From: Protoeuglena noctilucae
Taxonomy: Eukaryota
DNA: 64,000 nt
Direction: 5' to 3'
Assembly: GCA_958009085.1 (NCBI GenBank)
Contig: OY253679.1
Location: forward strand, 434,001-498,000
Position 1 is the first letter of the stretch. Each line of letters begins with the position of its first letter. This document shows, piece by piece, positions 29,981-52,625 of this stretch. The notes under the pieces are model-generated. The model was not told where the DNA came from. It saw only the letters and a program-made list of their open reading frames with translations, and did not search any database. Both the position numbers and the translations under genes were made by a program.

Positions 29981-30568
29981 TTTCCCAACGCGGGCACGAG
30001 CCAGGTCCACCAGCGACGCTAAGGGCTCGAGTGATCTGCTGTGGCATGTCGCAGTGGCCTGGGAGCTTTTCTTCAGGCACTGCGTGCTGACACACGCGAA
30101 GGGCAATGCCCTCCTTGCTCCCCCGGCGGAATGGCCGACAGGCGGCACCATCGGGCTCACAAAATCTGCTCCGTGGACATTGCAGCGGCAGAATCGTGAC
30201 CGTTCGCCTCGTGAAAGGCCCCAACGCCTCGGAGCACCTTCAGTGTCTTTGCTCTGCTCGCAATCGCACCAAACTGCTTGTGCAACTCAAGTCCGTGTCT
30301 GAGATAATCCTCTTATGCTAAATTGGGTTCTGGGGAGGCGAGAGGTGAGCGATTGCGGCCATGCCGCCAACGCCCCGCTTTTAGCACCACGAACACTAAC
30401 TCGAGTCCAGCGGGAAGACGGCACCATTTCCCTCCGTCCGCTTAACGCAGGCGGCAGCTGATGGGAACGATCTACCTGACGGCGGATGCAGGGAGGACGA
30501 CGCGTCTTCCCAGGTGCGGGAAATTGGGATTTTGAAGAGACCTATTTAGGGAACAAACGGCGTTCACG

Positions 30569-32117
30569 ATGCCAAGCCATCATGTTGTCCTGCCAAATAT
30601 GCCATCAGCTATGACGTGTGCGACCCTCAGCGCACAGCCGCACGCTCCTGTCCATCCGCAGCTCGGCGCGGAGGACGTGGAGGACATTGTGCTGAAGCGA
30701 AGCAAACGCCCCGGGTCGCTTTGGCTATCGTGCGCCCTGCAGTGCTTCGGTGGCCGCAAGGTCGTGAGGGACCTCGAGAAGAGGCAGAGTAGGGCCCAGA
30801 TGGACCTCCGCAAGCACAGCAGCGTGACGGCCCCAGGCAGGGCCGCCTCATTCCGCTCCTTCACCGCTGAGGCCCCGACGAGACCGGTTCGCCGGTCGTC
30901 CGCGACCAGCGTACGTAGCGAGGCCATGGCCAAGATGGCCACGGCGCCAGGCAGGGTCCCCTCGTTGCGCTCCTTCACTGCTGAGGCCCAGGCCCCGGCG
31001 AGACCGACTCGCCGGTCGTCCGCAACCAGCGCACGCAGCGAGACTGTGGGCAAGAAGGCCAGCGAGGGCACGCCGTCGTCCGTCCGCACCCGCCCGTTCC
31101 ACCCCATGCACCTCCCACCAGTGTCGCGGCCTGGGCTCCCACCCGCGCGCTCCCGACGCGACCTGAGGCCCAGGGCCGACGAGGCGCCCGAGAGCGAGCT
31201 GGGGGATTTCGGGGCGGTGGTCGCGGGGCGCGCGGGCTCCCGGGGTGGACTCCCTGACATCGGTATTCGTGACGAGCGCCTGCGCCGGGTCATGGAGGCA
31301 CGGCAACGGAGGTCCCGTCGAATGAGCCAGGCGAGCTGACACAGTACGCTTCGTCCACCTGTGCGGGTATCACTGTGTGGGTCAGTGAGTGATGACACTG
31401 TGCTGCCTCGCTTCGCAGGGGGAGCACATGGCACCCCGCCGCGTAAGGACCGCGAGCCAGCAGACGCTGGAGGAGGTTCTGAATTCCCCCAACCAGGCGA
31501 GTAGAGTGGTGGACTGCCGCTGGGGACATGAGGTGAAGGCATGAGGTGAATGCAGATGAATGCAGTATGAACCGTGGTTATCACCCTGGCCTCACAAGAG
31601 TGACCGTCTTTTGCGCATGGGGATGCTCTAACCATCCCCATCCCCCTATCCATACCCCTCTCCCTATATCCCCCCAATCCACTCACCCCAGGCCAGAGAG
31701 CTAGGCACCGACGGCATCAGCTTCTTCTGGGGTGCCCAGTCCGCGGAGACGGGGCAGCGGAGGGCCCGGGCCGCCACTGAGGTCGGGTTTTGATGTTTCG
31801 GCTCCGACGCACTTACCCGGTGATGATGCATCCACGGAGATGTATCATGCGTCATCCACTCTTCCTCTTGTCGGTAGGCAGGTCGCTCATTCGTGCCAGC
31901 GAATGCTCATTCGCGGCACCCATACCTTTGTTCTCCACAACCCATGGGCGCCGCCAGTCCAGGCTCCATGGGGTTTTGGCCGTGGTTCCTTTTCATCAGT
32001 CACAGAGAGGCGCACGGCCGCCCGAGGCTGGGCGGCCTGGTGTGCGCAGGAAAGCTCGGCAAGCTGCCGGAGCAGGGCTCATGCCCTGTGCTTGTCCGTG
32101 CCCTGAAGCACATCTAG
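30569..32117 (+). CDS. Hypothetical Arg/Ser/Pro-rich protein with an internal duplication; extends past the 256-aa ORF through two GC-AG introns (last exon uncertain)
   Basis: Long ORF to 31330, then in-phase exons 31419-31496 and 31692-31781. No recognisable domain. Confidence 0.55.
30827..31045 (+). repeat. Coding tandem duplication, two copies, period 114 nt (TAPGRxxSxRSFTAEA..RPxRRSSATSxRSE)
   Basis: Copies begin at 30827 and 30941 with high nucleotide similarity. Confidence 0.85.
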
Positions 32118-32291
32118 AGAGGCAGCCAGCTGCTGCTGAGAGGCGCAGAGGGCAGAGCACAGGGAGAGCGCAGAGGTGCGGAGAACAGGGAAGGCACTGT
32201 GGCATAGCGGCGGATAGTCCGCCAGCCAGCTCGCAAACGTTCCGTCGGCCCTAGCAGCGTCACGGCGACGCAGCCGGGGCTGGTGAGACAA

Positions 32292-32311
32292 AGCAGCAGC
32301 AGCAGCAGCAG
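32292..32311 (+). repeat. (AGC)6 microsatellite, intergenic or UTR
   Basis: Read directly from the sequence. Confidence 0.8.
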
Positions 32312-32884
32312 TAGAAGCAGTGGTCCACGTCGCGCGTTGCGGCGAGGCTCGAGAGGTAGGCAAGGCACCCCGCCCGTTGGTGACAAAGCCGAGCGGGTGT
32401 GCCAGAAGGGCAGCCCTATGCCCACCGCGACGGAGAGAAAACACTGCAAGATCGACGGGCTCATGACTGGGAAAGGGATGGACAGGCGGGGCTGGAGAAA
32501 CAGCCTCGCGCCTGCGCGCGAGAGAGCAGGGGAAAAGAGAGCGCGTGCTCCCAGGTGCAGAGGTTGCGAAACTGGTGGACGAGCCGCGGTCCCGTGGCCT
32601 CGACGCAGGCGGACGGCAGCGCAGTGCTGCGCCGGCTGGGACGAGGGAGAGGGTGCGAAGGCTCGGCCGAAGGGAAAGGAGGAAAGGCAAAGAGGGAGAG
32701 GAGACACGGTAAGCCGGCCGCTGCTTTGGTTCTTTGCTAAGTGGCAGCGAGCCACGCGAGGTGCGAGCGCGGCCGGTGTCTGAAAAGGGGGCGACGCCGT
32801 GTGTCTGAGGGGACCACCGCGGCGACGCAGGTTGTGATCGCGGCCAGGGTGCGTCTGCGCTTGCTGGGCGTGCCTCGGCGGCCC

Positions 32885-34807
32885 TCACGCCATCAGGGCG
32901 TCAACCTTGGGCATGGAAGGGAGGCGAGGGATGCCGGCGCTGTGGAGCGCACGTGCCAGCTCCCCCGCCGCCGACTCCTGCCCTCCGGGGCAGCTGGCCC
33001 GCATCGCGCTGCGGCCGCTGGCAGCCCCGCCGCGCGAGCCTCCGGCGTCGCGGTCCGCAACACGCTCCGGCGTGCCGTCCGTGGCGCGGCCGTGGGGCGC
33101 GTGCGGGTGCAGCACCCCGTCGATGTGCATCTTGGTCACCGTACCCGCCTGCTGCGCGTACCCATACACGTGGCACAGCCGGTCGTCGTCGGGTTGGGTG
33201 CTGTGGACGTCGTCCTCTGTCTCGGGGGACCGGCGGTGGCGCCGCACCCCCAAGGGCAGGCACGCCGCGATCAGCTTGCGCCAGACCAGGACGGAGGTCG
33301 CAGGTGCAAGCTCCTTGGAAACCTCGGCCTTGTGCATGCGGGGGACCTTGTCGACGTCTCCGCCCCAGGTGCGCCACCGAGGCGAGTCCACCTTGCCCGG
33401 CGTCTCGGCGAGGGCCACCGTGATCTGGCGGGCGCTCCTGGTTGGGGGAGGGAGGCACGCGGAGTCTTGGTCAGACACCAGCCGTACTCGCAGCGCCTTG
33501 ACGGAGAGTGCCACAGTTCACATGGCCGCGCGCTGCCTCGAGCGACTCACCCCTTGTCCAGCTGCACGGTGCGCCGCGACTTGCAGGTGAGGGTCTCCTC
33601 GGGGGTGGCGGCGGCGATGCGGCGCGTCGAGTGGCGCGCGAGGGGCGACGTGGGGCCGGAGACGGGGAGCGTGGGCCCCTCCAGGCTGAGCCGCACGTTG
33701 AGCGACAGGTGGCGGGGGTGCAGGGACCCGGCACTGGGCAGGGGCGCCACCCGTGGGCTGCACGAGTAGCCCAGGAGGGCGGCGTCCTCCGACGCGCCGC
33801 GGGGATGGCTCCCGAACGCGGCGTCCACCCCGGGGATGAAGATGGACTCCGCGCCGGGGCACTGGCACTCCGAGCCGCTGCCCAGGAATGAGTCGCGGGC
33901 GGCAGCCATGCGCGGGCGGTGAGGGGGGACGTCGAGGTGTGCGTCGGAGGGGAGCATGAGGGACGCGGCGGGCTCCAGGGCTCCTCCCGGCAGCGCGCGC
34001 CCGGCGCTGGGCAGGCAGATGGGGGCCTGGCGGGCGACGTGGACGTCCGACGCGGCGGCGCCCCGGGGGGAGGTGACCGTCGGCGCGGCACAGCGGGGGG
34101 TCGAGGGGGACGGGATGGGGATGGGCGCCGCAGGGGCTGGCCGGCGAACCGCTGTGGGGACGAGAAGGCTTCCAAGCTCATGTTGCAGTGACGACGGCAA
34201 ACGACTCAACAAGGGGAACGCAGCAACGCGGCACCCACCTGGCGGATTTACGGCACTCCCGTCATTGCCGGGGGCGGCGTCGCGGGCGTCGCAGCTCATA
34301 GCCGACGAAATCGCCGAGCTGCGGGCGAGAGCGGTGGCAGGCCGTGGATGCCGTGGTCCCCGCTCCCTGCCCCGTGACAGACAGCACCGCGATGTCTCAA
34401 CAAAGGGTCACCTGCGCGCCACCCATCCGATCGGCATGCGCGCGCCAGATGGCACCGCCTCCGCGATGCTGCGCAGAGCCGCCGCCTGGCGGCGCGCCCG
34501 GCCAAGGGTCGCGCCCCGAGGATTCTGGGGAGCGATGAAGAGGCCGTCCGACGTCTCGCTCAGCTCCGATCGCGCGGGCTCTAACAGCCACGACGGCCAC
34601 TTCGGCTCCACGCCCAGGCTCGGGTACAGCTGCTCCGAGTGCCCCGCCTCCTGCAGGGGCGACAGCACACGGGTGTCTCCTCCTGCAGGCCGCCCGCAGG
34701 AAAGCGCAGCGGGACCCCTCGCGCCGGGCCCGCACCAGGTGTTCCAAAACCATCTCCCTGGCCGGTCGGTGATGCGCGGGAGGCTTCCTGCGGTCCAGTT
34801 CTTGCAT
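32885..34807 (-). CDS. Hypothetical low-complexity Pro/Ser/Arg-rich protein, 5 exons
   Basis: Phase-consistent GT-AG chain: MQELDRRK...EHL | EAGHSEQ...VAR | SAISSAM...NPP | VRRPAP...LDKG | SARQIT...VDALMA*. No known domain recognised. Confidence 0.55.
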
Positions 34808-35666
34808 TAACGCCTCCACACATGGATCGCCTCCTGCGGGCGACAGACGGTGCTCGATCGCGGCGGTCGCGCAAGGTCGCCGCGCGTTGGCGACGAACGG
34901 GCGCGCGGGAGGGGAGTAGAGGTCGTGATGCGATGCTCCTTTGCGACGGGAAGCTCGAATCCGCGCTCTCGAGGACCCAGTCAACCGGGCGAGGTGGCAC
35001 ACTTCTGCGCTCCGGTGCGGCCCCGTCCGAGACATTCGGCGTTCCCCACGGTGCTCCATGGCCCAAAACGGCAAAAAGTAACACCTCGGTTCACGCGCGC
35101 GCCCCTCCCGACGCGCCGAGGACAGGGAAGCTCCCCGACCCCCGGCGCGCAGGGCATATTGCTCACCCGCGCGCTCCCCCGCGTCAAGTGAGAACCTCCG
35201 AACCGGAACCACGCCTGGCTGGGCGCGCGGGGCGAGGTCGAGATCTTGCGGGGCCCGCAACAACAGCAGGCCCTCGTGGACGATGCCCCGGGGCCCCAGG
35301 GCCGGTTCCGCGAACGCAAGCATTACAAACGAGCCCAGTGTGCGACGCCGATTGGCCCCAGGTCTCCTTCCCAATCCTCTTCTCCCCGATCCTCCGACGG
35401 GGGCCGCTGTGGCCGGGTGGGCACAGCTCACGGTACCCACGAGGATGGCACGCAGGAAACGGGGTCAGCGTGCGCGCCTGCCGGGGCACAATTCCCGCAA
35501 ACCACACAACTGGCACCGGGGTTTACCTGGGTCGGGCCAAATTCGCCGTTCCCAAGCCCCACGGCGTCGATGCCTAGCTTCCTCGCCAACTTTCGCCGAT
35601 CAATACCCTGCATCGAGCCCCGAGACCTTGTTCCAGCACGATTGGCGGTCCTGGGCGGTCCCCGCG

Positions 35667-38168
35667 ATGGCATCGCGCGAGGAGGATGCGGCCGTGAGCC
35701 ACTCCTCGCAACTGCAGGCGCAGGAGGGCCCGGAGCCCGCGCGGGCTCGTGCTGCCGGCGCAGAGGTTGCACAGGCCGACCCGTCCGCAGCTTCTGCAGC
35801 TGGAGCCTCCGCGAGCGCCGGAAAACCTGGCGCCCTTCCTCGTGACGATCGTAATGGTGGCGCAGCATCCCCCGGAGGGTGAGGCCTGGCGCAGGTGCGG
35901 AGAGAACCCGATGCGCGCCAGCCGTCGCGTCGTGGCTGACCTGCGTGCCGCCAAAGTCCGCAGAGGCCCCGCGGAGGGGAGGCTCGGCAAGAAGCGCAAG
36001 GTCGCGCTCTTCCTGGCGTACGTGGGCGCCGGGTACTCGGTGAGGCTTGGCACGGAGCTCGCCGAGCGAATGCGGGGCAGGGCTCTGAACGGGTGTGGTC
36101 TCCAGACACGCGAGTGCGCTTGCGTGGGCTGTCTTCCCCTGGCCATGTCGTGGCGGAGGGTTCTCCTCCGCCCCCCTCTCGCCCCTCGCCCCACAACATC
36201 ACCTGGGTCCATAGTGCAGCCCCTCGGCCATGCCACCGAGGTGCCGCCTCCGTATTCCAGGACATCTCCCTCGCGTGGCGCTGCCACCGTGCGATGTATT
36301 GCCGTCCCGCACCTCGCGAGGCACCCCCCTGACGTGCAGGGCATGCAGCACAACCCCAACGCCAAGACGATCGAGGCCGACCTGGAGCGGGCGATCGTGG
36401 CCGCGGGTGGCATCAGCGCCGACAACGCGGGAGACTTTCGCAAGGTGTCCTGGAATCGAGCGGCGCGGACAGGTGCGGGGTTATGGGGCGTGGAGACCGG
36501 GGCGTGCATAGCGCACCCAGGAATGTGGAGGAGCCGCGGTGGGAAGCGAAACACCGACGGGCTCCATTTGCGCCGCAGACCGTGGAGTGAGCGCCATCGG
36601 CCAGGTCGTCAGCCTGCGCATGGTGCTCGAGCCGCCGGGCATCATCGAACGGTGAGCGCCTGCAGATCCCAAAGCCGCAAAGCCGGGCCTCGAGGGTGGT
36701 TTGCCAGCCGCTTGCCAGGGCAGTGAGGAGACTCGGGATACGCGACGCCGCGGCCGGGGCTCCGGCCCCGTGCCGCTCCGTGGGCCACATGGAGGCCACC
36801 TCTGGTCTTCCAATAGATCCTACCGAGCCCTGGGGTCTGGCATGTGAATGGCCCCTTCCTGCATGGTCTCACGCCCGCGCCACATGGATCGTCCATATGA
36901 CAGCACGCCACGACCCGCCCCTGGCCCCTCCCCGCAGCATTCAGAAGCACCTGCCGGCGCAGATCCGCGTCTTTGGCTGCGTGCGCACGACGAACGGCTT
37001 CAGCGCCCGCAAGCACTGCGACCACCGTCGCTACCAGTACCTCATCCCCACGTGGGCCCTGGACCGTGCCTATCGTCCTGAGCCCGACGCGCCGTCGTGG
37101 TGGCAACGGTACCGTGCCTCGGGCGAGGTGCTGCCGGAGCACCGGTCGCTGCCCGACGACCGCCGCGCCGAACTCGACGCCCTCCTGAGTCAGTTCGTGG
37201 GCACCCACAACTTCCACAACTACACGGTGGACGTGGCCGGGACGGACCCCTCGGCCAAGCGCCACGTGCTGTCGTTCGGGGTCCGCGACGTCATCGAGGT
37301 CTCGGGCGTACCCTTTGTGCGCCTGGAGATCGTCGGGCAGTCCTTCATGCTCCACCAGGTGACATGGCACCGCCAAGAGGGGTGCGTTGCATGCTGACAC
37401 ATCGCATGACACATTCTATGCCCGGGTTCACGCCTGCTCGCTTCCATCGCAGATCCGCAAGATGGTGGGCATGGTGCTGGCCATCGCCCGGGGCGTCGCG
37501 GACCCCTCCTGCCTGCGCCTGGCGTTGGAGCCCAGGCGCGACATCTTCACGATCCCCATGGCCCCGGCCTCGGGCCTCCTGCTGGCCGAGTCGGTGTTCC
37601 AGGTGTACAACCGGAATTGGGGCAAGGACCGGGAGGTGGCATCCCTGGAGAGGTGGGGGGCCGAGGTGAGCAGCGGGCGGTGGGGAGTCGAACAGCGTTG
37701 CGGGGCCGATGACGATTGTACGTGGTCCCAACAGTCCCAGGGTGGCCCCTGGCCGCCGCTGCCGATCACCACTCCTTTGTCACTACCTCTGAGGCTCCTG
37801 CTGCTGGGACAGGCCGACAGGTGTATGCCTCGTGCCTCATCGCTGCACCAGGGCCGGCCTCCGCTCCTCGCTCGCAGGCGGAGGCGTTTGCCATGGGGCA
37901 CGTCTACCCGCAGATGGTGCGCGATGACGAGGAGCACAACCACATGCACGACTTTGTGGGGCGCCTCGAGAGCAAGGGCAAGGAGATGTTCGGGGACTGG
38001 GCGTCGCTGCCGGTGCACAACCGGCCTTACGACAAGCGCAAGGGCAAGGGGCGCCCGCGGAACGGCAAGCAGGACGCGCCAGACGCCAAGCGGCGGCGGG
38101 GGAGGGGCCGGGAGGTGGACGAGGGGGGGTCGGGGGAGGAGGAGGAGGAGGACGGGGTCAGCGAGTGA
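35667..38168 (+). CDS. PUS1: tRNA pseudouridine synthase, TruA/Pus1 family, multi-exon
   Basis: KRKVALFLAYVGAGYSGMQ, catalytic RAARTDRGVSA, RRYQYLIP, FVGTHNFHNYT, GQSFMLHQIRKMVG and IPMAPASGLLL. Confidence 0.93.
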
Positions 38169-38515
38169 CTCGTGTAGACGAAGGCTTGGGTCTTGCTTAG
38201 AGCTCTCGCTCGAAGGTGGCCGTCTGACCTGCACTCCCGTGTGAATCCCAGGGGATTCGGGCGGCAGACCCGTCTGACCACTGAGCTGGCTAGCGCCGCC
38301 AGCTCGAGCATTCTCCACTTCACACCTCTCTCGGTCTTGGCGGGAAAAGCTGCGCTAGGCTCGGGCGTCGTCAGGGGTCACATTGGGGCAATCAACGTAA
38401 CGATTTGCCAGTAATGGCGCTCTCCATGTCCTCCCGATGCCCTGCGTTCAGCGCAGTGGGCCCACGAAAACCTCACAATCGGAAGCTCGCCATCAGGCTG
38501 GGGGATCTTGCGCCA

Positions 38516-39117: not shown

Positions 39118-39434
39118 AACGGCAGGATTGAGGCTGCCGTTTCTTGCAAGTTCCTTCCCCCCGCCGCTCCTCACCTTGAAACTCATGCACACCACAAGAG
39201 ATCTCTGGGAGCCGCACCGGCTCATTGTTCCTGGCTGTCACGACCCGCAACCTCTGCATTTGCATGCATGTGAGGCATCCCCGGCCTTACCTTCCCGCAA
39301 GTCCACCATTCATGAAGGCCAAGTAGGTAAGCAAAGCAGCGCTGGATGCATCGGCGCCCTCACCCCAGGCGCGAGCGCGAACGGGGGGAGCAAGAGGTTA
39401 GCGAAGCCAGCCGTTGTTTCTGCCGCAGGGCGCC

Positions 39435-42400
39435 ATGAGCTCGCAAGACGTGCCGCAGATACCTGAGGGAGAGCTGCAGCTCGGTCCATTGCTGGGCTGG
39501 GGCGGCCAAGGGGAGGTATTTCGGGGCACGTGGCGGAAACGCAGGGTCGCCGTCAAGAAGCTCAATGTCGTCGTGAACGACGGGGATCCGAACAGCGCAC
39601 ATTGCAACATTCTCACCGAACGCGTGCGGGAGCTGCAGCGGATGGCGGTGGCGGCGATGCGGTGCAACCGCGTGTGCAGGCAAGTCAATGCGACGCACGC
39701 AGAGCTGCTGAGGGCGTCAGCGTTGGCTGCATTCCTGATTCATGGCCCCGCTGCGCCTGCTCCTGCCCGCAGACTGCTGGGATACAGCATCATCGACACG
39801 CGCCTCCACATCGTCATGCCCCTGTACGAGCGGGGCTCCCTCGCCGCCCGCATCGCCGAGCGCGGGGCACTGCACGGGGACGAGCTGGTATCTGTCGCCG
39901 AGCGGCTGCTGGAGAGCCTGAAAGAGCTGCACGACTGCGGGATCGTGCACCGGGACGTCAAGCCCGCGAACGTGCTTTTGGACGACGACGGGAAGCTGCT
40001 GCTCGCGGACTTCGGTCTGGCCGTCGTGGTGGAGACGATGAACAGCACGGGCACGACGACGGACAAGTTGTTCGGCACCGCCCATTACGCGTCCCCGGAG
40101 CAGCTGTACTCGAGACCATGCACCCCGGCTTCGGATGCGTTTGCCCTCGCCTGCACCATGTATCATGTGGCGACGGGCCAACGGCCTCACGCTTCGTTGA
40201 CGCCCTTTGAGGTCGGCGTGGTGGTTGCCATCGAACACCGCTTCCCGGAGATCCCTGACGCCGTGCCCGAGCCCCTCCGGTCCGCCCTGCAGGGCGCGCT
40301 TCGTGCGGAACCGGAGGAGCGGACGTCGGTGGAGGACATGCTGCGCGCCGCGAGGGAGGCCAGGCAAGTTGTGAGCGGGAGTGTCGCACCCATGTCGTGA
40401 CATGCACTGCGCTGAGCGCGAAACCCCTTCTGTGCCTGCAGGGTCCGGGACTGCAGCCTCTGCCGGGCGGGGCGTGAGGCGGGCACCATGGTTGCGTGCT
40501 CCGAGGGCCGTCACCGCCTCTGCGGCGACTGCCTGGCCTCGGTGGTGCGGGCGGTGACCGCGGACCCTGGGGTGTTCACGGACGAAGGGCACCTGCCGTG
40601 CGCGAGGTGTGCGGCCACCGAGTGCGACGGGGTGTTCCCAGAGGACACTGTCGTGTTCCAGCTGGGAAGCGAGGACGTGCGGAGGTGCTTCCTGGATGCC
40701 ATCCGGCGTCACGCGGCGCTGATGGCGGGGAGGACCCGGGCGCCGCCAGCCGGGGCTGTGGGACACGAGGGGACGGCGGGGCAGAGGGGGGAGGTGGAGG
40801 AATCTGCGATGGAAGTGGAGCAGGGAGACGTGGTGGGGCAGGAGCGGGGGCCAGAAGGGGTGGAGCACGTGCGGGCAGCGCTGCAAGATATGGTAGCGGA
40901 GCAGGACTGTGTGGTGGGGCAGCAGGGGGGATCAGAGGAACATGAGGGATTAGAACAGCATGAGGGGGTGCCTGAGGAGCCCAGGGAGGCTCCGCAGCCC
41001 AGCGCCGACGAGCACTCGTTCCCGGGAGACGGTACCACCCCAGACGAGCTTGGGGATTCCTTGCCGGTGCCTTCCGGCCATGGCACGTGGGACAGCGATC
41101 GTCCGTCGACGCGCCCTGTGGCCACCTGGGTCGATGTGCCCTCCGAGGCTGGCGCAGACGACGGCTCCGTCCACCAGCACCGGCAGGCGCTCGAGGACGA
41201 GCTGCTGGTGACGCGGTGCCCGTCGTGCCTCAACCCGGGGCTGGCGGGCGGCGACCTGCACGAGTGCATGGTGCTGTGGTGCGCCCAGGAGGACGGCGGG
41301 TGCGGCACGGCCATGTGCGGGTGGTGTTTCGGGAACTGCGGGGAGGACGTCATACGGCACGTGGCCACCTGCGCCTTCAACCCACGCGCCCCATACGTCA
41401 CGGGCTCCGAGCGCGAGCTGCTGGCGCGGGTGCAGGCAGAGCAGCGGCGCCGGGTCGTCGAGTACCTCCGAGAGATGGTGCCCCCCGCGATGCGGGAGGC
41501 GGTGTGGGGCGCCGTCGAGGGCCTGCCCGTCCTGCGGGACGCGGGGCTGCGGTGGGCGCAGGTGGCCGAGGATCTGCAGTCGTCATGGTGCGCGTCCTTG
41601 GACACTCCAGGGAGTGGGTCAACGATACCCCAGCCCTGGGCCGAGGGGAGCAGGGGCCGTACCCACGCCGCGCCCGCCCCAGTCCAGGTGTTGTCCAGCG
41701 ACGGTGGCTTCTCTGATGGACCGCCATCCACCCTGGGCACTGCGTCAGGAGACCCTCTGCAGGACTTGGCAGAGGTGGGCCAGCTGACAGGGCTGCTGGG
41801 GCGCATGGGCCCGGCGGGGACGAGCCACGCGGTGCGCTCGGCGCTGGATCTGAGGAACGAGCCGCGGGGCAAGAGGAAGCCGCTGGTGGGCGAGGGTGGC
41901 AAGGCGATGTTGGCGATGGGCGCTCTGCTGACGGGGGGGACCGTGCTGGGAGCGGTGCTGGACGGGCCGACTTCCGCTCTCTCCGCGCTGTCGCCCACCC
42001 GCGCACCGGCCAAAGCCCCGCCAGCCCCGGACCCCCCTTCCCCGTCCCCACCGCCCCCACCGCCCCCGCTGCCCAAGGCGATGCAGCTGGCCTTGGCGGC
42101 CCAGCAAGGGGGTTCCGTGGACTTGGAAAACTCGGAGGTGGAGCTGGGTGCCGAGCTGCGTGTGGTGGGCTACATGGTGGTCAGCAACGGCACGGTGCGC
42201 GTGCCTGGGGGGGCGCCGTACGCGTTCACGGTTCCGCCGGGCGGCCGGCTGGAGCTGACGTCGGTGCAGGTGGTCGGGGCTGGCGTGTGGTGCGTGGGGG
42301 GGTGCGCGATGCTGTGCAACAGCTTGGTCAAGGCCGCCCCCGAGACGGGCGTGCTGTGCACCACCTCGGGCATCGCGGCGATACTGCCCGCCTGGGCGCA

Positions 42401-43403
42401 TCTCAACGGAGTGACGGTGGAGGGCGCCGGGGCGGACGGAATCGCGTGCGTGGGCGGGGGGTGCGCAGTGACGCTGGACGGCCCATGCGCGGTGCTGGGG
42501 TCGGGCGGGCACGGCCTGGTGTGCCGGGGCGGGGCGCGCATCGTGGCGGAGGGGGTGCAGGTCCGTAAGGCCTTCCTCAGCGGGGTCTTCTGCGAGGGCG
42601 AGAAGAGCGATATGGCGCTCACGGGGGCCTCGGTGGGGCCCGCGAGGGAGCACGGCGTCGAGTGCGCGACGGGGGGCCGCGTGTCAGCAGTGGAGACGGT
42701 GCTGATGGGATTCCGCCTGTGCGGGGCCGTGGCGTGGCAGGGAGGCGTGCTGGCCATGCGCGGCGTGCGGGTGGAGGGGTCCCAGTGCGCGCACCACGGG
42801 GTGTTCTGCAGCGAGGGTGGGAGGGCCGAGGTGCACGGCGGGTGCATCCGGGACTGTGGGAAGATCGGGGTGCACTGCAAGGGGGAGTCGAGCTCTGTCA
42901 CCGTCACGGACGGCCTGGTGACCGGGTGCCGGGAGGGCAGCGGCGTGGCGTGCTGGGAGCGGGGGTCGGTGGAGCTGCGTGCCACGCACGTGCTCGACTG
43001 CCGGCACAGCGGGGTGCTGGTGAGGGACCGGGGCAGCGTGGTCACGGTGGCGGGCGGCGTGGTGCAGAACGCCAGGGAGCACGGGGTGGAGTGCCTGGCG
43101 GGCGGGGAGGCCCGGCTCGACGACGTGCGCGTGCGCGAGTGCGGGCTGTGCGGCATCGCGAGCCGGGGGCGCGGGAGCCGCGTGACCGTGACGGGCGGGG
43201 TGATCGAGGAGGTCCGGGAGCACCACGGCGTGGCGTGTGCCCAGGGCGGGCACGTCAAGGTGCGGGGCGTGACCATCCGGCAGTGCCGGCAGTTCGGCGT
43301 CCTGCAAGGGGACCTGGGCAGCAGCGCCCACGTCGTCGGGTGCACCATCACCGACTGCGGGGAGGGCGCGCAGTTCGTGTCGAGCGGCTGCAACGTCGAC
43401 TGA
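39435..43403 (+). CDS. Multidomain protein: Ser/Thr kinase, C3HC4 RING, RBR RING2-like zinc domain, putative TM, Pro-rich linker and right-handed parallel beta-helix
   Basis: Exons 39435-39679, 39773-40363 and 40442-43403 join in frame through two GC-AG introns. Kinase motifs GWGGQG, VAVK, HRDVKPAN, DFG, SPE. RING CSLC...CSEGRHRLCGDC...CARC. Second zinc domain CPSC...CMVLWC...CGTAMCGWC...HVATC. C-terminal repeats of about 23-25 aa (GVxCxxGG). Confidence 0.8.
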
Positions 43404-43903
43404 GGGCCGAGAACAGGTGAGCGTTTTGTGCGCACCGTTCGCTGTTGCACGGGCTCAGGTGCTTGCATGTAGCGAGCGATGCCGCCCTACCGCGCCAGCA
43501 TAGTATTACATATCGGGCCTCCTGCGTTTGCCTGCAGATTAGTGGCATCCAAGCATGGAAGCCTTGAGCTCTACGCTCGCTGTCATCGTCAGTCTCTTTC
43601 GGTACAGTTTTGCTTGCATAGTGTGTTTAATACGTCCCATGGAAAGAAGTTTGAGATACAGTTTCCGTTTCCGCGCACTTGCGAACTCCTCTTGGTCAGC
43701 ATTTGCTGCAATCAGTCGCTTCATAGAACTGCCTCGGCACCGGTCGAGCAAAACAGCGCCGTTTATCTCGCGTCGAAGCTTGGCGTGCGTATGAACCAAG
43801 TCATCAAGTTCACAAACTGCGTTTGCGCTCGGCAACGTCACAGTAGTGTGGCCGCACAATGGGCGGCCATCGCGTCACTGCCTCGATGCCTCTCCGCCGC
43901 CCC

Positions 43904-46900
43904 TCAGCGGCCGACGGCCAGGCCCCCAATGCGCCCCGCAATGCTCACGTCGCTGGCCACACTCGCGGCGTCCGAGTCGGGCAAGAAGCCACCGAACTCC
44001 CCCGCCAAATCACCCACCCCGCTAGCCTGGGAGGAACAGGTATACGAGGGTCACCATTACTCGCTACACACCACAACAACCACCCCCGACCTTGCGCCGA
44101 TCCCACCACGCCACTCACCAGCGCCTGGCAGACCCACAGCCTCCCCTGCGCCTGCGCCGCCTGCCGCACCGCCGCCTCCTCCCTCCGCGACAGCGACGCC
44201 GCGGGGGCGAGCGCCGACGCAGCGCGGGACCCCGCTCCCAGGCCCGTGAGCATCGCGCGGCCAACAACGGGCTCTGCGACAACGGCAGGCGGTTCTTTTA
44301 CTGAACTGACGACGCAATCTGCCACACATATCTACACTTTCCACGCATGTCCATGCGCTGCTCACCCATCCTGCGCACGACCCCGCTTGAGAACCGCAGA
44401 CTCATGCTAGCCGCCCCCCCTGCGCCGCCCGCGTCCCCATCCGCTGCGCTGCCCGGATCCGCAGAGTGGCCCCGCTGCCCCCGGCGCCTGACGAGCATGG
44501 CGGCCCGGTGCAGCTCGGCGGCCTGGTGCCGCAGCCGCTTGGCCAGCGCCTCCAGGTCCGGCAGGGTCGTGTCCTCGTGGCGGTCCAGCAGGGCCCCGAA
44601 ACGACGCTGCTCGTCGCTGCAGGAGACGACAGGGGTGGGGGACATGTGAGAGAAGCGCCGATACGTGTGCGAGAGGCATACAGGCACACGGACGGTCGTA
44701 ACATGGATGGAGCGGCAGGGGCGTGACGGTCGCAGCCTCCCACCTCGGCACGTGTGGCAGCCCCGCCACCTCCTCCACGAGTGCGTCCAGGCGGGCCGAC
44801 AGCCGCCCCGCCTCCACCTCGGCTGCCGTGAAGCGATCCGCGAGCGCCGACTGCACCGCCCCCGCCTCCTCGGCCCTGGGCTGCAGCTCCTCCACCTTGG
44901 CAGCGCACTCGCGCGCCGACGCCGCCATTTGCGCGAACCGCTCCGTGAGCAGCGCCTCGGCGTGGCCCGCGAATGCCACGAAGGACTTCTTCAGCGCTGT
45001 GGCCGCCTCCACCTGCGCCCACGCACGCGAGTCACGCAAGGTCTATCGCAATCAGGGTGCCAGCGACATCTGAGCGAATCCCGCCAAGTGTCACTTGTGA
45101 GGTCTACCCTGTCGCAACCAGGGTGCCAGCAATGGATGTTCTCCTAACAACAGCCCGGCTGCCTCGGGGGCTCACCAGCGCCTTCCTGCCGTCCACGGAG
45201 TCCGAGTCGAGGTCGGCGGGGATGTCTGGCATGTCCGATGGGGCAGGCGGGCCCTGAAGCACGTCCTTGTACCGCAGGGCCACGGCGGTCAGCAGCTCGT
45301 CTTCCCTGCAATTCGACAGAACAGAGGAGGGCAGCTCGCGTTCGGCCGTCTGCTGCCAGCTCCAGCACAGGAGATCGATCGCAAACACGCATCAGCCCGC
45401 GCCACTCACCTCCCCTTGCTCAGTAGCCCCGGGCCGCCGCCCCGGCTCTTGCGTTCGGTGCTCTTCCGCGCCCCCGCGCGCGCGAGGGGGGACAGCGACA
45501 CCTCCCGCCCCCGCGCCCCCGGGCTGGCAGCGCCCCTCTCGCCCGCCGTCCCATCCCCAGCGGGGGAGGCGCGCGGGGGGGTGTCCCTCGAGACACTCGG
45601 CGCGGCGAGGGAGCCGCGGGCGGCGGAGGGACCCCGCGGGGAGAGGCACGCGGCCTCGTCGGCGGCCCAGGCCACGGCCGGGCGCAGGCACGCGGGGCGG
45701 AGGTCGTCGTCCAGGGCCAGCACCGCCGAGCCGGTGAGTTCGCTGCCGACGGAGGCGACGACGCGGAGGTCCGGGTCCGCGCAGAGCTCCTCGATGGACG
45801 GCTCCGGGAGGGCGCTGAGGGACGGGGGTGGCGCGGACCCGGGGGCGGCCTCGGCGCGGGCGACGCGGGTGAGGTACGAGGAGACGACGGGCATCCAGGG
45901 GAGCGTGACGCTGCGGAGAGGGCGCGGCATGCGGTCATTCCATGGGGTTGACCTGCTCTGCCCAGGCGAGTCCGCGTGGGCGTTGACGTGTGCCGCAGTG
46001 CCAGTTGTGCTGCCCAGTCTTACCTGTGCACGCCGTTAGGGTGCGCGACAAACACGCGCGAGGCCATGGCCCGGTCCGGCATCAGCACCACGCCCCACGA
46101 CTCCCCCGCTGCCACGTCCACGCCGTCGTCATCAGGGTCAGAACCGCCCAGGGGCATACCCAGGGCGTCGCCGCGAGTGGGGACCTCGATGGCCAGAGAC
46201 ACGGTGTCGATGAGCATGAGGGACGTCGGCGACGGGGCCGTGAGAGGGCCAGGCGAGCGCTGGGGGGAAGGGGGCTAGGAAGCGAGGCTCGGGGGCGCCG
46301 ACTAGGCGGAATGCAGTTGGGTCAGAGAGCAAAGGATCAAAGCATCTCTGCCGCTGAGCCCATCTCACCTGCGGGCACGCCCGGAAGGCGGGCAGGCACT
46401 CTCCCGCGAGGACGTGCGTGGTGACGGCGGCCTTTGAGGCCAGGACCACCGCGGTGCAGAGGTGGTGCTGCAGAACGACGGCGGCCTCCCAGGGCGCCTC
46501 TGAATTGGACGTCTCCTGGCCGTCGAACGACTGCAGCACGTCCAGGGGGCCTTGCAGGCACGGCACGTATGGGGCTGCGGGGGTCACGGGCGGTGGATGA
46601 CGTGGGTTGGCCAGGCAGCGCCGGCCACTCGCCCTTTCACCCTCGCTCCACGTCTCTTGCGCCAAGGTCACCTGCACGCCCCGGCAGCACGCAGACGCGG
46701 CCCCCCTCCTCAGCCAGGGCGTCCCCCAGCCACGCCAACCCCTCCCGGACCACGTCCGGCCCGGACCCCTCCGCGGCGTGCAGAGCGTCGCCCGCCTCCG
46801 CCAGGCTCTCCCGCATACCGTCCACGTCCGCGGGCGTCAGCGGCGCCCCCCCGGGGCACACGGGGCAGACGGCAAAGACGCGGCCGTCCCGGCACAGCAC

Positions 46901-48168
46901 CAGGACCGTGAACCGCGCCCAGGGGGCGGCCCCGGCCCCGCTGGGCGCCGCGAAGGCGAACGCGGCGGCCAGAGAGTGCCTGGGGGTTCCTGGGGTGCGC
47001 GACTGTGACCGCTGTCCCCGGGCACGCGACCCCGGCGATGGCCGACTGACAGCACCGGCGCGGGAGGGGGGCGTGAGGCCCAGAGACGCTCCGACGGGCG
47101 CGCCGGGCGGGGGGATCTCGAGGCGAAGCGCGAGCTCAGGTTCGTTGGGGGCGTGGAGGGCGTCAAACTGTGGTGCAGCAGACGGGGGGGCTGGCAGCCG
47201 TCGCGTCAAGGATGTACGAGGCACGGCGCTGGTCAGGCCGCGTGCATGCCAGTCACCATGAGCAGGGTGCCCCCTGACGTGAGGATGACGAGGTGGTGCG
47301 CTGACTGGGGGTGCCAGTCGGCCTGGAGGACGCGGAGGCCGGGGGCATGGCCGAAGAACCCCTGCCCGATGTCCGTGACACCCTTGAGCGTCTCCGTCAC
47401 CAGCCGTGGCCGGGAGTTCACCTCTGCAGGCGCGTTGGGGAGGCCTGTGCATGGTGAACCTGTGTCGGCGCTGAGCGCCCCTACACGGGGTGGCAGGTGC
47501 CGTGGCGTGACTTGCAAGGAGAAGTGGCACGATGCTCAGACGGACTTGAGCGCGTGCGGGCCATCGTGTCGAATGTCACGGCGTGGGCAGCGCAGGAGCA
47601 ACACCCACCCGTGCGGCGGGCCAGGTCGGTCCGCGAAAGGTCAAGCACGCGCACGCACGCGCAGTTGTCCGGACTGGAGTACCCGCACAACGCCACCAGG
47701 ACGCCCGACGGACTCGGCACAGCCAGCGTGACGCGGAACGGAGCGGCGCCCGGGGGAAGGCGGAGCGTGGTGCGCTCGCTGACGGGCTCCAGGCCCCTCT
47801 CGACAGCATCGCGAGCGAAGGAGCCGTACAAGAGCTCCTCCCGGAGGCGGACGCTGCGCAATCCTCCCCGGGCGTCTGCAATGAACAGGTCGCCCCCCAA
47901 GCTCGTCCTGCAGCCGAGGTAACGGGCGCGCGGTGGGAAGAGCTAAGCATGACTTTGTTAGAGCACGCATCGGGATGACATGCGGGATCTGAAACGGATC
48001 AGGGAGCGAAAGGGGGGGAACCGAAGGTGCGAGCACGCCACGGAGCGCGCTGGGCCCCTCGACCTCTGCTGCTCACCCCATGGTCTTGACAAACCCATGG
48101 TGGACGTCCTCCAGATCATCATCGCCGACATCGTCGATGGCGCCTGCGCCACGGAAGAAGGCCTCCAT
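43904..48168 (-). CDS. NUP88: Nucleoporin NUP88/MOS7 (Nup82)-like, multi-exon
   Basis: Propeller motifs SPSGVLVALCG, LRVLQADWHPQSAHHLVILTS and WARFTVLVLCRDGRVFAVCPVCP, plus a C-terminal coiled coil. Start exon MEAFF at 48168; stop at 43904. Confidence 0.78.
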
Positions 48169-48626
48169 CCTGTGGGGCACACAGCGCGGAAAACCAAGCC
48201 CCAACTGCGGGCTGCACCGCTCAGACACAGTCGTGACGTGGATAAAAGCATCGGCGCAGAGAACGCCCAGACGCCAAGCTGGGCGGGCACGTATGACGCC
48301 AGTCCCCTCGCAAGAGCCGCCGTGTCGAGGATGCGCGCACGCGATGGCCGTGTCGTGCATCCCACGTCAGTTTATGTCTTGTGGATTAGCTGGTCCTGGG
48401 GCTTGCCGGGACTCATCGGCCCTGGGCAGGTCACAGCAGGCCATCAGTCCCCCGCACGCGACGGTGACGGCGTCACACTACGTGAAGCCTTGCTTTTGTT
48501 TCCCCGGACTGTGATCTTGAATCCCCAACATCCCGTGGCACGAGTGGCTTGACGCCGGCTGCTGAGGTCTTCGGAGAAGCAGGGAGGCCCCCGTTCACCC
48601 CCTTGCGGGGGGCCAAGCCGCCGCGC

Positions 48627-51600
48627 ATGGCGATCGCGCTGGAGCTGACCTTTCAGGTCGTATACGGCCACACTCCTGACGAGCCCTTGTGCTGCCTCCT
48701 CACCATCTCAGGTGGGACCAGCATGGCACACGTCTCCAGGCTGTCTCGCGACGCGATCGCGGCCGTGCACGTCGCCCTTCCGTGCCTCTCACCATATATT
48801 GCCTTTGAGATTGCATATCTTGCCCTCCCGTCCGCCCTCCTGCTCGCGGGGCCTCCCAGACCCATGTCGCTTCCCGCCCGCAGGCTCCAAGGTCCTTTTG
48901 GACTGCGGTTGGGACGCGGCGTTCTCCGAGGAGTACGCGGACGCACTCCGACACATTGCGCCCGATGTCGACGCGGTCCTGCTCTCCCACGGCACCGTCC
49001 GGCACCTCGGCATGTTCCCCCGTGCCGTCGCCCAGGTCAGAGCTTGGCCCCGGGTTGCACCCCCGGAGCCCTGGCCGCAGCGGCTCGTGCGCTCCCGGTT
49101 CGCCGCCCACGCGCGTCGTCTCTGGCGTATCGCAGCTGGGCCTGTCGTGCCCCGTGTATGCCACTGTCCCCGTGCACCGGATGGGCCAGGTGGCGCTCTA
49201 CGAGGCGGTCATCTGCGGGAGGGACCGGGGCAGGGACATGCCGGGGACGGCGATGGAGGACGTGGATAAGGCATTCGCGACGGTGCAGACGGTGCAGTAC
49301 CAGCAGCCAGTCGTCATCGGGTGAGGGACCGGGACGGTGGCAAGTGACTGCCTGTGGCTGCACGTCAAAGTGACGCTAGGGAACCGGCCCTGGTTGCGCT
49401 GGTTTTTGCCGTGCTGCAGGACATCCCAGGTCCCTGTTAGCCACGGCTCCTCATCTTGCCCCCCGTCTGCACCCCTTATCCATCAACCGTCGCATCTCTG
49501 CCCTCCGCCCCAGGGACCCCGCCCGGGGCATCACGGCGACGGCTCACCCTTCCGGCCACAGCATCGGCGGCAGCGTGTGGTGCGTCAGCGTCCTGGGCGA
49601 GGACGTCATCTACGCCCCCACCTTCACGCACCGTCGCGGCGTGTTGCTGGAGGCGGCCAACCTCGAGGCCATCTCGCACAGGCGAGCGGGACGCACTGTG
49701 CAGTGATTCACTTCTTTGGATTCTCTGTGGTGCTGCCCTCGCATGGTCTCGCAAGTGCCCACCGCTCGCGTCACCGCGCGCCTCTTCCCCTCCACCCCCA
49801 GGCCCGCCGCCCTCGTGGTGGGCGCCCCCCTCTCCACGGGCCTCCAGACCGCCGCCTCGGACGCCCAGAGGGACCGCGCCTTCCTGGACGCAGTCGTCGG
49901 CACCCTCCGCGGGGACGGCAGCGTCCTGGTGCCCTGCGACGCGTCCGCGCGGGTCCTGGAGGTGCTCGCCCTGCTGGACGCGCACTGGCAGGCCAACCGG
50001 GAGCTGCACGTGTACAGGTCAGCGCGGGTGCACGGCCGCGGGGGCTGCAGGTGTCGTTCAGACTGACGCCCTTGGTATGATGGTGACATCACGCAACTGT
50101 GGGCCTGCCCTCGCAGCCTGGTCTTCCTGAGCCACACGTGCCGAGTGATGGTCGACTTCGCTGCCACCCAGCTCGAGTGGGTCCGCCAGGATCTCATCCG
50201 GGGATTCGGGGCGGATGACCGGGCCACACGGGGCCGGCAGAGGTGGGTGACAGCCGTGAGGCGTGCTGCAGGGCTGGCGGCGTGGAGACTCGCGCTGAGA
50301 GCAGGGCCACTCCTCACCCCCTGCAGGGACAACCCTCTGTCGTTCCGGCACGTGTCCCTGGCCACGTCGGTGGGGGAGGCCCTGGGGGAGGGCGGGGGAC
50401 AGCGGTGGCGGCAGGGGGTGTCGCGGGTGGTGGTGGCGACGCAAGAGGACCTCGAGGGTGGGATGGCGCAGGAGGTGTTGGAGAGGTGTGAGGCCGACTG
50501 CGTGTCTGCAGTTGCACAAGGTCCGGGTGCGAGCTGCAGGGCGGAGATGCGACGCGAGTGACCATCGGGTCCCTCACCCGCAGGTGGGCCGCCAGCCCCC
50601 GCAACCTGGTGGCGTTCCCGGGCCTGGCCCGCCGCAACACCACGGCCGCAAACGTCCTGGCCCGCGCCGCTTATGCCAAGGAGCAGACGGTGACGCTGCT
50701 GCTGCCGTCGACGGTGGAGATGCCCTCGCGGATGCCAGGCGGGGGTGGGGAGGGGGCCATGGCCGGTCAGGGTGGCGGGGAGGGAGCGGAGGGGGGTGAA
50801 GCGGCGGCTGCGGCGGGGGACGTGCACAGTCGCGTGGGGCGGCGGGCGATCGTCGGCATGTCCCTCCCTGTGCCTGGCCTGGACCTGGCCGGGGGCGAAG
50901 TGGACGTGGAGGTGATGCAGCGACTGCGCAGCTGGCACTGGTCGCTTACTGCCGGGGTTGATGCATTGGTATGTTATCTGGTAAACATGAGCGCGACTGC
51001 CGCCTGGCCATGGTCGCCCACTGCCAAGGACGATGCATTGGTCTGTTATCTCGTAAACATCTGCTCGCTTCCCTGCGTCTCAGATGGACCTGGGGGAGTC
51101 GCATGCGGGGACGAAGGTGCCAGGGGAGGGCCGCGTCAGGCGTGGGTACATCCCCGGGTGGGACTGCACAGTGCACGGGTTCGAGGTCCCCGCGGACGCC
51201 CTGGCGCCCATGTTCCCGGGCCCTGACGAGGACGCCGGGGCGGACAAGGTGCCTGGGCTGGGGTGCTCTGTGCGGGGTGGTCTGAGGCATTGGTGTCACT
51301 GCTGGCGCCCCACCCTGGGTCTGCGCGGCAGAGAGGTTCGTGTTTGAGCTTCCCGGCGCACTGCGCTGTCGATGATCGTCGCAGGAGTGGGACCTGTACG
51401 GGGAGTCGGTGCGGGAGGGGGAGTTTGCGATGCTGAGGGGCAGGGAGGCGCCGGCGCTGATGGAGGGCGCGGGGGGCGACGGGGCGCAGCTGGGGGCGCA
51501 GCTCGTCAGGCGAGAACCGGGAGGGTGGCCGCGGCCGGGGTTGGCGGAGCTTGCTGACACGTGACGCATCCCGCCAACCCATCCCCCTTGCAGCCTCCGC

Positions 51601-52625
51601 CGCGAGTGGGAGCGCGCCCGGCAGGCGAGCGCCATGCCCCCCGCCCCGCGCGACGTGGCGTTCCGCGCCCGCACCGCCGCCTTCGACTTCGCCGGCGCCT
51701 CGGACCCCGACTCAGTCGCGGCGCTTGTCACGCGAGTGGCGCCGCGCGCCGTGGTGGTGACGCACGGGGAGCCGGGGACGGTGCGGGACTTGAAACAGGT
51801 GTTGGTGCGGGCGCTGGCGGCGGGCAGGGCGGACGTCCGCGCCCCCACGAAGGGCGAGGCCGTGCCTTTGCACGCGGGGACGTGCGCGCTGCCCCTGGAG
51901 CTGCCGCCCGTGACCCTGGGGTCGCTGCGGATGCGGGCCGTGGGCAATTACGAGGTGGCGTTCGCGACGGGGGTGCTGCGGATGGAGGGGTCGGGGGTGC
52001 AGGCGGGGGCGACTGGCGGGGCGGGGCCCAAGGGAGAGGGCGCGGGGGCGGGGGCGGGCGTTGCGGCGAACGGGGGACCCCAACCGGGGCGTGCCGATGA
52101 GGCATTGCCCCGGCTGGTGGTGCTGGGCAGTGAGGAGGAGGCGGGGGAGGCGGCCGGGGGGGTGTTCATCGGGGACGTGAAGCTGTCGGAGCTGAGGCGA
52201 GTTTGCATGAAAATTATCCATGATATGATGTAATGCTGTTGGAAACTGAGGCACTTGGCATGGAAAAGACAGCCATCGACAAGTGTGGGTGGAGGCACGG
52301 AGCGGGGATAAAAGCAACGTGGCCATCGGTGACCGCCCTGGAGGCCCGGACGCAGGTCGGCGCTGTCTCTCCGCGGCATTCGGTCGGCGTTCGTCAAGGG
52401 CGCCCTCGTATGCGACGGCCGCATTGTCATCCACCGCAACGCCGACTCGGGTGCGTCATTGCAGCTCGGCTCAAGCAGCTGCGCCTCCCCCACGCTTGTG
52501 GCGGCAACGCACCCCAACGCCGGCCCCCGCTGCTCCTCGCAGGTGCTGTGGAGGTGGAGGGTCCACTGAGCGCCAAGTTCTACGAAATACGCGACGCCGT
52601 CTACGGGCAGTACTCCATCTGCTGA
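48627..52625 (+). CDS. CPSF2: Cleavage and polyadenylation specificity factor 100 kDa subunit (inactive MBL/beta-CASP), multi-exon
   Basis: VLLDCGW, DAVLLSH..RHLG, GLSCPVYATVPVHRMG, SGHSIGGSVW, GSVLVPCDASARVLE, FIGDVKLSEL and VEGPLSAKFYEIRDAVYGQYSIC*. Confidence 0.92.
50920..51060 (+). repeat. Intronic tandem duplication, two copies, period 72 nt, in CPSF100
   Basis: GATGCATTGGT(A/C)TGTTATCT(G/C)GTAAACAT occurs at 50960 and 51032 with similar upstream flanks. Confidence 0.8.

Follow-up and report, generated by a model that had tools for sequence, protein, structure and literature searches.

The analyzed window comprises 64,000 nucleotides (nt) of Protoeuglena noctilucae DNA (assembly GCA_958009085.1, contig OY253679.1, positions 434,001 to 498,000), and all positions given below refer to it. 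Two stop-to-stop open reading frames (ORFs) lie on its forward (+) strand, a kinase frame at 39402-40400 and a longer one at 40416-43403, and a preliminary description made from the sequence alone had proposed that they join in frame through a GC-AG intron into a single protein with a kinase, an RBR-like E3 ubiquitin ligase and a beta-helix. The follow-up analysis agreed with the join: the exons 39435-39679, 39773-40363 and 40442-43403 together measure 3,798 nt, which is divisible by three, and encode 1,265 amino acids (aa) up to a stop codon found only at the end.

Gene model of the kinase-ligase locus

All features of the gene model lie on the + strand. Coding exon 1 (39435..39679) holds the start codon and the N-lobe of the kinase, with its Gly-rich loop, the lysine of the VAVK motif (K41) and alpha-C, as read from the translation and the Pkinase match (4e-36). 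It is followed by intron 1 (39680..39772), a predicted GC-AG intron of 93 nt that is in frame and contains no stop, and by coding exon 2 (39773..40363), with the remaining kinase (HRD D143, DFG D161 and SPE E191, from translation and Pfam). Intron 2 (40364..40441; 78 nt, GC-AG) contains the stop of the kinase frame. Coding exon 3 (40442..43403, including the stop codon at 43401-43403) is an open frame partially covered by RNA contigs, and a GT-AG intron of 121 nt (43417..43537) lies in the 3' untranslated region (UTR), 13 nt past the stop codon. The first CxxC of the RING1 domain (40452-40463) is encoded within exon 3, ahead of position 40488, at which the long frame has its first ATG, so that a stand-alone 971-aa product would lack this Cys pair and start inside the RING; the proposal that the splice supplies the first CxxC was in this way borne out.

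Introns 1 and 2 share an identical donor (AG|GCAAGT) and both end in CAG. The octamer AGGCAAGT was not enriched in the window (3 occurrences vs. 1.36 expected, and at least 3 in 15 of 100 shuffles), so the case for splicing rests on other evidence. Codon statistics differed between exons and introns, with G+C at third codon positions (GC3) of 0.80-0.89 in the three exons (0.80-0.87 flanking intron 1) vs. 0.60 in both introns, in a window of ~67% G+C. Along the frame of exon 3, GC3 ranged from 0.70 to 1.0, being 0.9-1.0 in the part encoding the Rcat-like domain and 0.70-0.75 in the linker that precedes it. A further in-frame GT-AG intron (41687-41761; 75 nt, GTGTTG...CTGCAG), suggested by weak codon periodicity, was considered and not adopted, since it was present unspliced in contigs from two RNA runs (X1 and X2), with no joint among them.

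The RNA data consisted of assembled contigs from three marine metatranscriptome runs (X1-X3) of one study, which do not separate mature RNA from pre-mRNA or DNA; a fourth run consisted of near-identical DNA and may be the source assembly. In run X2, a contig of 190 nt (record 10, depth 4) covered 40201-40360 and then skipped 78 nt, its shorter side being 30 nt long; the junction can slide over 4 positions, and of the five resulting registers only 40364-40441 has standard ends (GC..AG). Another contig of the same run (record 15) covered 43105-43416, and its loose end matched the letters from 43538, corresponding to the removal of 43417-43537; the splicing of this 3' UTR intron indicates that genuine mRNA of the gene was present in run X2. 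Regarding the two coding junctions proposed earlier, the join of 40363 to 40442 was seen in RNA, with intron 2 occurring once spliced and once unspliced, whereas that of 39679 to 39773 was not: intron 1 occurred unspliced only, and its donor was crossed by no RNA contig, 39441-39581 being uncovered as well; stretches lacking coverage carry no weight either way. At the 5' side, a contig of run X2 matched the window up to 39378 and continued with 83 letters that do not resemble it, which may represent an upstream exon junction or another transcript.

Related sequences provided a second line of evidence. When the joined product was used in tblastn, the alignments to L001 and L004 each had a single segment spanning both kinase and RING1, after which the second zinc domain aligned, and in L001 (3160-6432) the WD40 repeats, kinase, RING1 and Rcat are encoded by a single open frame of 1,091 codons. 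In an alignment with L001, L004, P0007, P0088, P0040, P0075, P0120 and P0101 the first Cys pair lay within ~10 residues of the kinase C-lobe; the kinase-RING1 junction of the spliced product coincided with that of these relatives, and the alignment was gap-free at intron 1. The closest kinase relatives, P0166 (47% identity) and P0167 (46%), were both called as isolated frames starting at the RLLG motif, where exon 2 starts, and ending at AAR-x-(A/S)-R, where exon 2 ends, so both intron positions appear to be conserved. Moreover, the members of one kinase cluster (P0166, P0282 and P0284) and those of one RING1-Rcat cluster (P0002, P0151 and P0152) had longest contigs of the same lengths (2,773 nt; 12,395 nt, with 12 contigs each; and 560,412 nt), suggesting that the kinase and RING1-Rcat frames adjoin in relatives too, once within 2.8 kb. 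A metagenome scan yielded four loci, L001 and L004 among them, all distant (31-62% identity over short parts), and none of the four was a close relative with a beta-helix.

Two separate genes would explain part of these data: a kinase of 321-328 aa ending at the 40400 stop and an independent E3-beta-helix protein starting from the ATG at 40488. This arrangement agrees with a gapless contig of run X1 (record 2) across 40278-40553 and with public gene calls, which give separate proteins (P0165 and P0001); but the RNA libraries contain pre-mRNA and DNA too, and the separate calls stem from intron-blind ORF calling. Considering also that an RNA contig omits exactly 78 nt, that relatives hold the junction in one frame, and that the stand-alone product would be without a Cys pair which aligns with relatives, the existence of two genes seems very improbable. 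The kinase frame and the long frame very likely constitute one spliced gene, in which intron 1, modeled from homology and codon statistics, is probably spliced as well.

Domains of the predicted protein

The Ser/Thr protein kinase domain (39483..40346; Pkinase residues 17-304 of the unspliced frame) is split by intron 1. It matched PF00069 with 125.2 bits vs. a cut-off of 31.7 (E 4e-36) and has all the expected motifs (G21xGxxG26, K41, H141-R-D143, N148, D161-F-G and S189-P-E191), in agreement with the earlier view of an intact-looking kinase, which is presumably active. The nearest solved kinases were STK24/MST3, NEK1, PknA/PknB and NIK (~1e-20), and beyond P0166 and P0167 the database neighbours were unnamed or bacterial-type kinases, with 34-47% identity over about half of the length. 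The resemblance to KEG/KOC1-type kinases that had been suggested received no support among these nearest solved or database kinases, KEG itself lying outside the comparison. In the kinase relatives P0166, P0284, P0282, P0167 and P0286 (alignment A4), an in-frame insert of ~50-60 aa beginning G-x-M-x-V-S-V-R-R was observed in the activation segment; it resembles an unspliced in-frame intron and is absent at the corresponding position here.

The kinase is followed by an RBR-type RING1 with a helical extension (40443..40730; C283, C286, C298, H303, C306, C309, C335/C332 and C340). Pfam search of the whole frame at E ≤ 0.1 gave neither RING nor IBR, and RING1 alone matched zf-C3HC4 at 0.0063, below the cut-off. 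In an AlphaFold model of the zinc module built with 70 sequences, the confidence score pLDDT was 84-96 over module residues 1-100, which correspond to RING1. A structural search of ~48,000 PDB representatives returned RBR RING1 domains, including those of HOIL-1, HOIP and HHARI, in 13 of the 15 top rows; Foldseek also put RBR RING1 proteins first but weakly (best E 0.034), and a profile of the module matched parkin at E 6e-6 and the ARIH1 RING1 at 0.002. Based on the structural rows and the profile matches, RING1 is of the RBR type (C3HC4 plus helical extension).

The place of the IBR is taken by an acidic linker (40731..41165) with 33 Asp and Glu and a single Cys in 145 aa, which had been noticed in the preliminary description and is modeled as disordered (pLDDT mostly < 50); its base composition is codon-like (0.9 and 0.35-0.40 G+C at first and second positions). 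From the last Cys of RING1 to the first of the Rcat-like domain there are 188 residues with 2 Cys, vs. 56-83 residues (median 65) with 0-2 Cys in 103 relatives, namely those of 163 database proteins that were matched by both RING1 and Rcat profiles. The 145-aa linker is an insertion relative to all 103 relatives (linkers of 56-83 aa), and no IBR zinc domain lies between RING1 and Rcat either in this protein or in the 103 relatives, their linkers being Cys-poor. Since the IBR is absent, the module is RBR-derived and not a canonical RBR; of the RBR-like ligase proposed earlier, RING1 and the Rcat-like domain were upheld. In canonical RBRs, the IBR helps to bind allosteric ubiquitin, according to PMC9834252.

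The third part of the module comprises a helix, an Rcat-like zinc domain and a three-helix tail (41166..41585). A profile of 48 short family members matched residues 2226-2280 of Cullin-9, corresponding to its RING2, at E 2.4e-4, with G-C aligned on G-C. The cysteine reached in Cullin-9 is presumably the catalytic Cys2249, and the GC of the parkin RING2 aligns at the same place, making Cys554 (codon at 41265..41267) the candidate catalytic residue. The same profile matched, more weakly, the ARIH1 RING2, HOIL-1 and parkin, and also the zinc-ribbon ribosomal protein eS27 (6e-4). With a larger profile, RING2 scored 17.9 bits vs. 9.2 bits for the IBR within one parkin chain, and the ARIH1 RING2 was found at 0.0023; together with the Cullin-9 match, this is in line with the RING2/Rcat-like character that had been attributed to the domain. 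Pfam IBR_1 was detected in 11 of the 48 members and not in the protein described here, and the nearest Atlas cluster was named "RNF216 Rcat domain-containing protein" (score 0.94). The relative P0010 (506 aa) has a Pfam RING and a Pfam IBR followed by two tandem copies of Rcat plus tail, so that in it the Rcat-like domain occupies the position of RING2. Two tandem copies of Rcat plus tail were also observed in P0013, P0144 and P0055.

Over 164 distinct aligned rows, eleven Cys/His columns were conserved (C538, C541, C554, C559, C566, C571, C574, C578, C589, H585 and the His column 583); two zinc ions take eight ligands, so that some of the conserved Cys/His would be free. Cys554 is a Cys in 158 of 161 aligned relatives and C578 in 148 of 161. 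The protein keeps every conserved Cys column and matches 17 of the 24 columns conserved at 75% or more. A second structure model (helix-Rcat-tail) had a pLDDT of 88.9, and the top Foldseek rows for it were the RNF216 RING2 crystal entries 7m4m, 7m4o and 7m4n (E 0.14-0.7), RNF216 residues 647-772 aligning structurally over 108 aa with the Rcat-tail model; neither of the module models had a Foldseek match at E ≤ 0.001. In the wide structural search, the Z score was tied with unrelated helical proteins, which were aligned over only 50-60 residues, and a single-sequence PDB search of the zinc module gave nothing useful. The Rcat reading accordingly draws on the profile matches, on a conserved cysteine beyond those required for zinc and on homology of position, and not on fold scores.

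Downstream of the module lies a low-complexity Pro-rich spacer (41586..42095; 28 Pro in 170 aa), the Pro-rich stretch that had been placed after Rcat, with a tandem repeat, CCGCCCCCA, at 42042-42067. It is absent from the close relatives P0003 and P0004. The remainder of the protein is assigned by Pfam and motif register to a right-handed beta-helix (42096..43400) of ~17 GVxC..GG-type repeats, each 22-25 aa long, a motif count consistent with the more than 15 turns reported before. Beta_helix (PF13229) matched in two stretches with 63.8 bits vs. a cut-off of 25.9 (E 1.9e-17); the fold was assigned from sequence, and the beta-helix had no match among PDB sequences. It carries 27 Cys, and Beta_helix also follows the module in P0003 and P0004.

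The spacer includes the most hydrophobic 19-residue window of the protein (residues 767-785, 41904-41960; Kyte-Doolittle 1.86), which follows six Arg/Lys, precedes Pro-rich sequence and could be either a membrane anchor or low complexity. If these residues crossed a membrane, the protein would be a receptor with a cytosolic kinase and ligase and with a Pro-rich stalk and Cys-rich beta-helix outside, an organization to which the hydrophobicity, the preceding basic residues, the Pro-rich stretch and the 27 Cys would all be suited. The segment is rich in Gly and Thr, however, and is part of a low-complexity insert rich in Ala, Gly and Leu; P0003 and P0004 have no such insert, and their beta-helix comes directly after the ligase tail, so that a receptor of this kind seems decidedly improbable.

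Taken together, the locus is read as one gene with three coding exons, two GC-AG introns and a GT-AG intron in the 3' UTR, encoding a kinase, RING1, an IBR-less linker, an Rcat-like domain, a spacer and a beta-helix, and as working through the RBR-like mechanism proposed below, with an estimated probability of about 0.65. Several observations weigh against this reading. Intron 2 is retained in X1 record 2 (40278-40553) and intron 1 in X3 record 16 (unspliced across 39697-39887), and spliced intron 2 is known from a single contig with a 30-nt anchor. The kinase scored 120-129 bits with generic kinases vs. ≤ 58 bits with the kinases of other family members; being nearer to generic kinases, it suggests that the fusions need not share one origin, and it seems that the cassette was combined with different kinases or that those kinases diverged fast. 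As for the zinc module, it is without an IBR, 7 of 24 well-conserved columns differ in this protein from the family, with Ile583 where a His is kept in 158 of 162 relatives, and no His is found at +2 of Cys554 (M-V-L-W follows in this protein; position +2 of the relatives is mostly Ala, 142 of 161). The catalytic triad of canonical RING2 domains is Cys-His-Glu according to PMC9834252, and without the His at +2 this triad is not reproduced. One of the other conserved His (columns 583 and 585) might substitute for it.

The missing His at +2 bears on whether the protein is an ordinary RING ligase, in which RING1 would drive direct transfer from the E2 and the second zinc domain would be a structural IBR-like finger without thioester chemistry. 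The Pfam matches of the relatives, which are IBR models, point in the same direction, and fold search scores are alike for both options. Even so, we regard such a ligase as rather unlikely: the domain resembles the parkin RING2 more than the parkin IBR (17.9 vs. 9.2 bits), its best single match is the Cullin-9 RING2, Cys554 is nearly invariant and beyond the needs of zinc binding, and in P0010 an IBR already precedes the Rcat-like domain. The divergent columns and Ile583, for their part, would fit a degenerate ligase, with a working kinase and beta-helix and a RING1-Rcat decayed to a scaffold in this gene, as would the unique 145-aa insertion between RING1 and Rcat and the fall of GC3 to 0.70-0.75 in the linker. 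Such decay is improbable in view of the retention of all conserved Cys of RING1 and Rcat, the 986 open codons with a GC3 of 0.9-1.0 in the Rcat part, and the confident AlphaFold models of both domains (pLDDT 84-96 and 88.9).

In the surroundings of the gene (29658-38354 and 43473-51947), none of 41 frames of at least 180 aa matched a Pfam family at 1e-5; given how GC-rich the DNA is, the majority of long frames are probably spurious. Searching the window with the product (tblastn) gave only one other kinase-like stretch, at 22558-22851 (+), with 31.6% identity to residues 90-187 (E 1e-10) and no RING or Rcat match beside it.

The RING1-helix-Rcat family

A HMMER search of 1.84 billion representative proteins with the 372-aa module retrieved 379 proteins at E ≤ 0.001, the conserved unit being module residues 235-372 (helix, zinc domain and helical tail). 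Pfam analysis of 42 matches showed Pkinase before the module in 16 and a helicase in 6 (DEAD/Helicase_C, or AAA_11/AAA_12 with a ZNFX1 domain), as well as ankyrin repeats in 2, UBA in 1, a ubiquitin-like N-terminus in 1 and Beta_helix in 2, while 9 were without any Pfam family. The cassette is usually C-terminal, behind kinases, helicases or repeat domains, and named members came from Pythium and a picozoan. The RING1-helix-Rcat cassette thus represents a large protist family, and the kinase-ligase core is not unique to the gene described here. With ~50% G+C in the L001 contig, the family is not confined to GC-rich genomes. One member, P0123 (1,251 aa), has a diverged ubiquitin-like N-terminus, which ends in LRLAGN instead of Gly-Gly, then an extended helical region and finally a kinase with RING1-Rcat.

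The closest members, P0003 (43% identity) and P0004 (38%), have Beta_helix after the module, and a beta-helix joined to the module is confined to the present gene and its close relatives. No database protein combined kinase and beta-helix, the beta-helix relatives being intron-blind calls that start inside RING1, and no match was found between the longest contigs of P0003 and P0004 and those of the kinase cluster P0167. Only the long frame itself came up when it was used in a word-index search, and an alignment search for longer forms gave at least five non-self matches. The combination of kinase, ligase and beta-helix is so far seen only in this gene.

The preliminary description knew of no account of this architecture. 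The triple with beta-helix is so far seen here alone, but the kinase-RING1-Rcat core is not unique and recurs in 16 of the 42 matches. No published account of kinase-RBR fusions or IBR-less RBR-like ligases was found in a literature search that reached neither subscription journals nor catalogues of domain architectures; both the cassette lacking an IBR and its recurrent fusion with kinases and helicases appear to be undescribed.

Proposed mechanism and comparison with known systems

Taking canonical RBRs as a template (PMC9834252), RING1 would dock E2~ubiquitin, and the helix before the second zinc domain, together with the first half of that domain, would hold the donor ubiquitin. Cys554 would accept ubiquitin as a thioester and hand it to a target positioned by the helical tail and the beta-helix, the latter most likely recruiting the target or a ligand. 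The kinase could either mark the target or switch the ligase by phosphorylation in cis. What is proposed here on the catalytic thioester, on kinase activity, on the part played by the beta-helix and on kinase-ligase coupling is inferred. The sense-phosphorylate-ubiquitinate device put forward in the preliminary description is likewise an inference.

At a broader level, we tentatively suggest, at somewhat less than even odds, that the cassette represents a so far undescribed branch of RBR ligases that has no IBR, yet retains catalysis via a cysteine thioester, and has been repeatedly attached in protists, as an output module, to sensor-like proteins. The hosts would include unrelated kinases, helicases of the DEAD/DEAH and ZNFX1-like types, an AAA protein of 4,125 aa, and proteins with ankyrin, WD40 or leucine-rich repeats (LRR). 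The beta-helix of the present protein would then be ligand-binding, and a single chain would bind its ligand, phosphorylate and ubiquitinate.

A family with RING1 and an Rcat-like domain, and with a short helix in place of the IBR, would reveal which parts of the RBR mechanism are dispensable, and the IBR-less cassette would serve as a minimal module for its study. Its fusions to kinases and helicases offer a testable link of phosphorylation or nucleic-acid sensing to ubiquitination in little-known protist lineages. The gene is also relevant for annotation: where gene calling ignores introns, GC-AG introns break up genes of this kind, and a "kinase" and a truncated "RING protein" are listed instead.

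RBR ligases are defined by three zinc domains. As in canonical RBRs (parkin, ARIH1/HHARI, ARIH2, Cullin-9, HOIL-1, HOIP and RNF216), the RING2-like domain is preceded by a helix and carries a Cys in the catalytic position, and a helix comes after the zinc domain, for which RNF216 is comparable. PMC9834252 names a "helix-RING2-helix" construct of RNF216 and describes a mechanism worked out on 14 human enzymes, all with an IBR. Unlike them, the protein described here has neither an IBR nor a His at +2 and is fused to a kinase and a beta-helix, and the conserved C-x-x-D-A-H-x-H-V-x-x-C end of its family was not seen in the solved RING2 domains aligned.

In Arabidopsis KEEP ON GOING (KEG), a plain RING stands before the kinase, and ankyrin and HERC2-like repeats come after. 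KEG, termed a "RING-type E3 ligase" in PMC3697954, where the terms for its RING, kinase, ankyrin and HERC2-like parts also occur, is similar in having a kinase and a ubiquitin-ligase zinc domain in one chain. It differs in order, the present protein starting with the kinase and continuing with RING1-Rcat and the beta-helix, and no Pfam match to Ank or to a HERC2-like domain was found in the present protein. The PINK1-parkin system likewise pairs a kinase with an RBR-type ligase, and phosphorylation activates the ligase there; its two partners are distinct proteins, with Ubl, RING0 and an IBR present in parkin, whereas a single chain is predicted here, with a putative coupling.

FBXO11 and FBXO10 carry a CASH right-handed beta-helix of PbH1-type repeats on F-box adaptors of cullin-RING ligases. 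They resemble the present protein in tying a beta-helix to the ubiquitination machinery and differ in that here the ligase is in the same chain; no Pfam F-box family was found at E ≤ 0.1 on either frame.

P0007, P0040, P0075, P0101, P0120, L001 and L004 share with the present protein the order kinase-RING1-Rcat, a junction placed just past the kinase C-lobe, and the Cys/His columns. They differ in their short helical linkers, in having no beta-helix, in their distant kinases (≤ 58 bits) and in their N-terminal additions, which are WD40 repeats in L001 and ankyrin, LRR or ubiquitin-like domains in the others. The layout of a cassette mounted on a sensor is, finally, reminiscent of E3s that are linked to helicases and ATPases in the innate immunity of animals.

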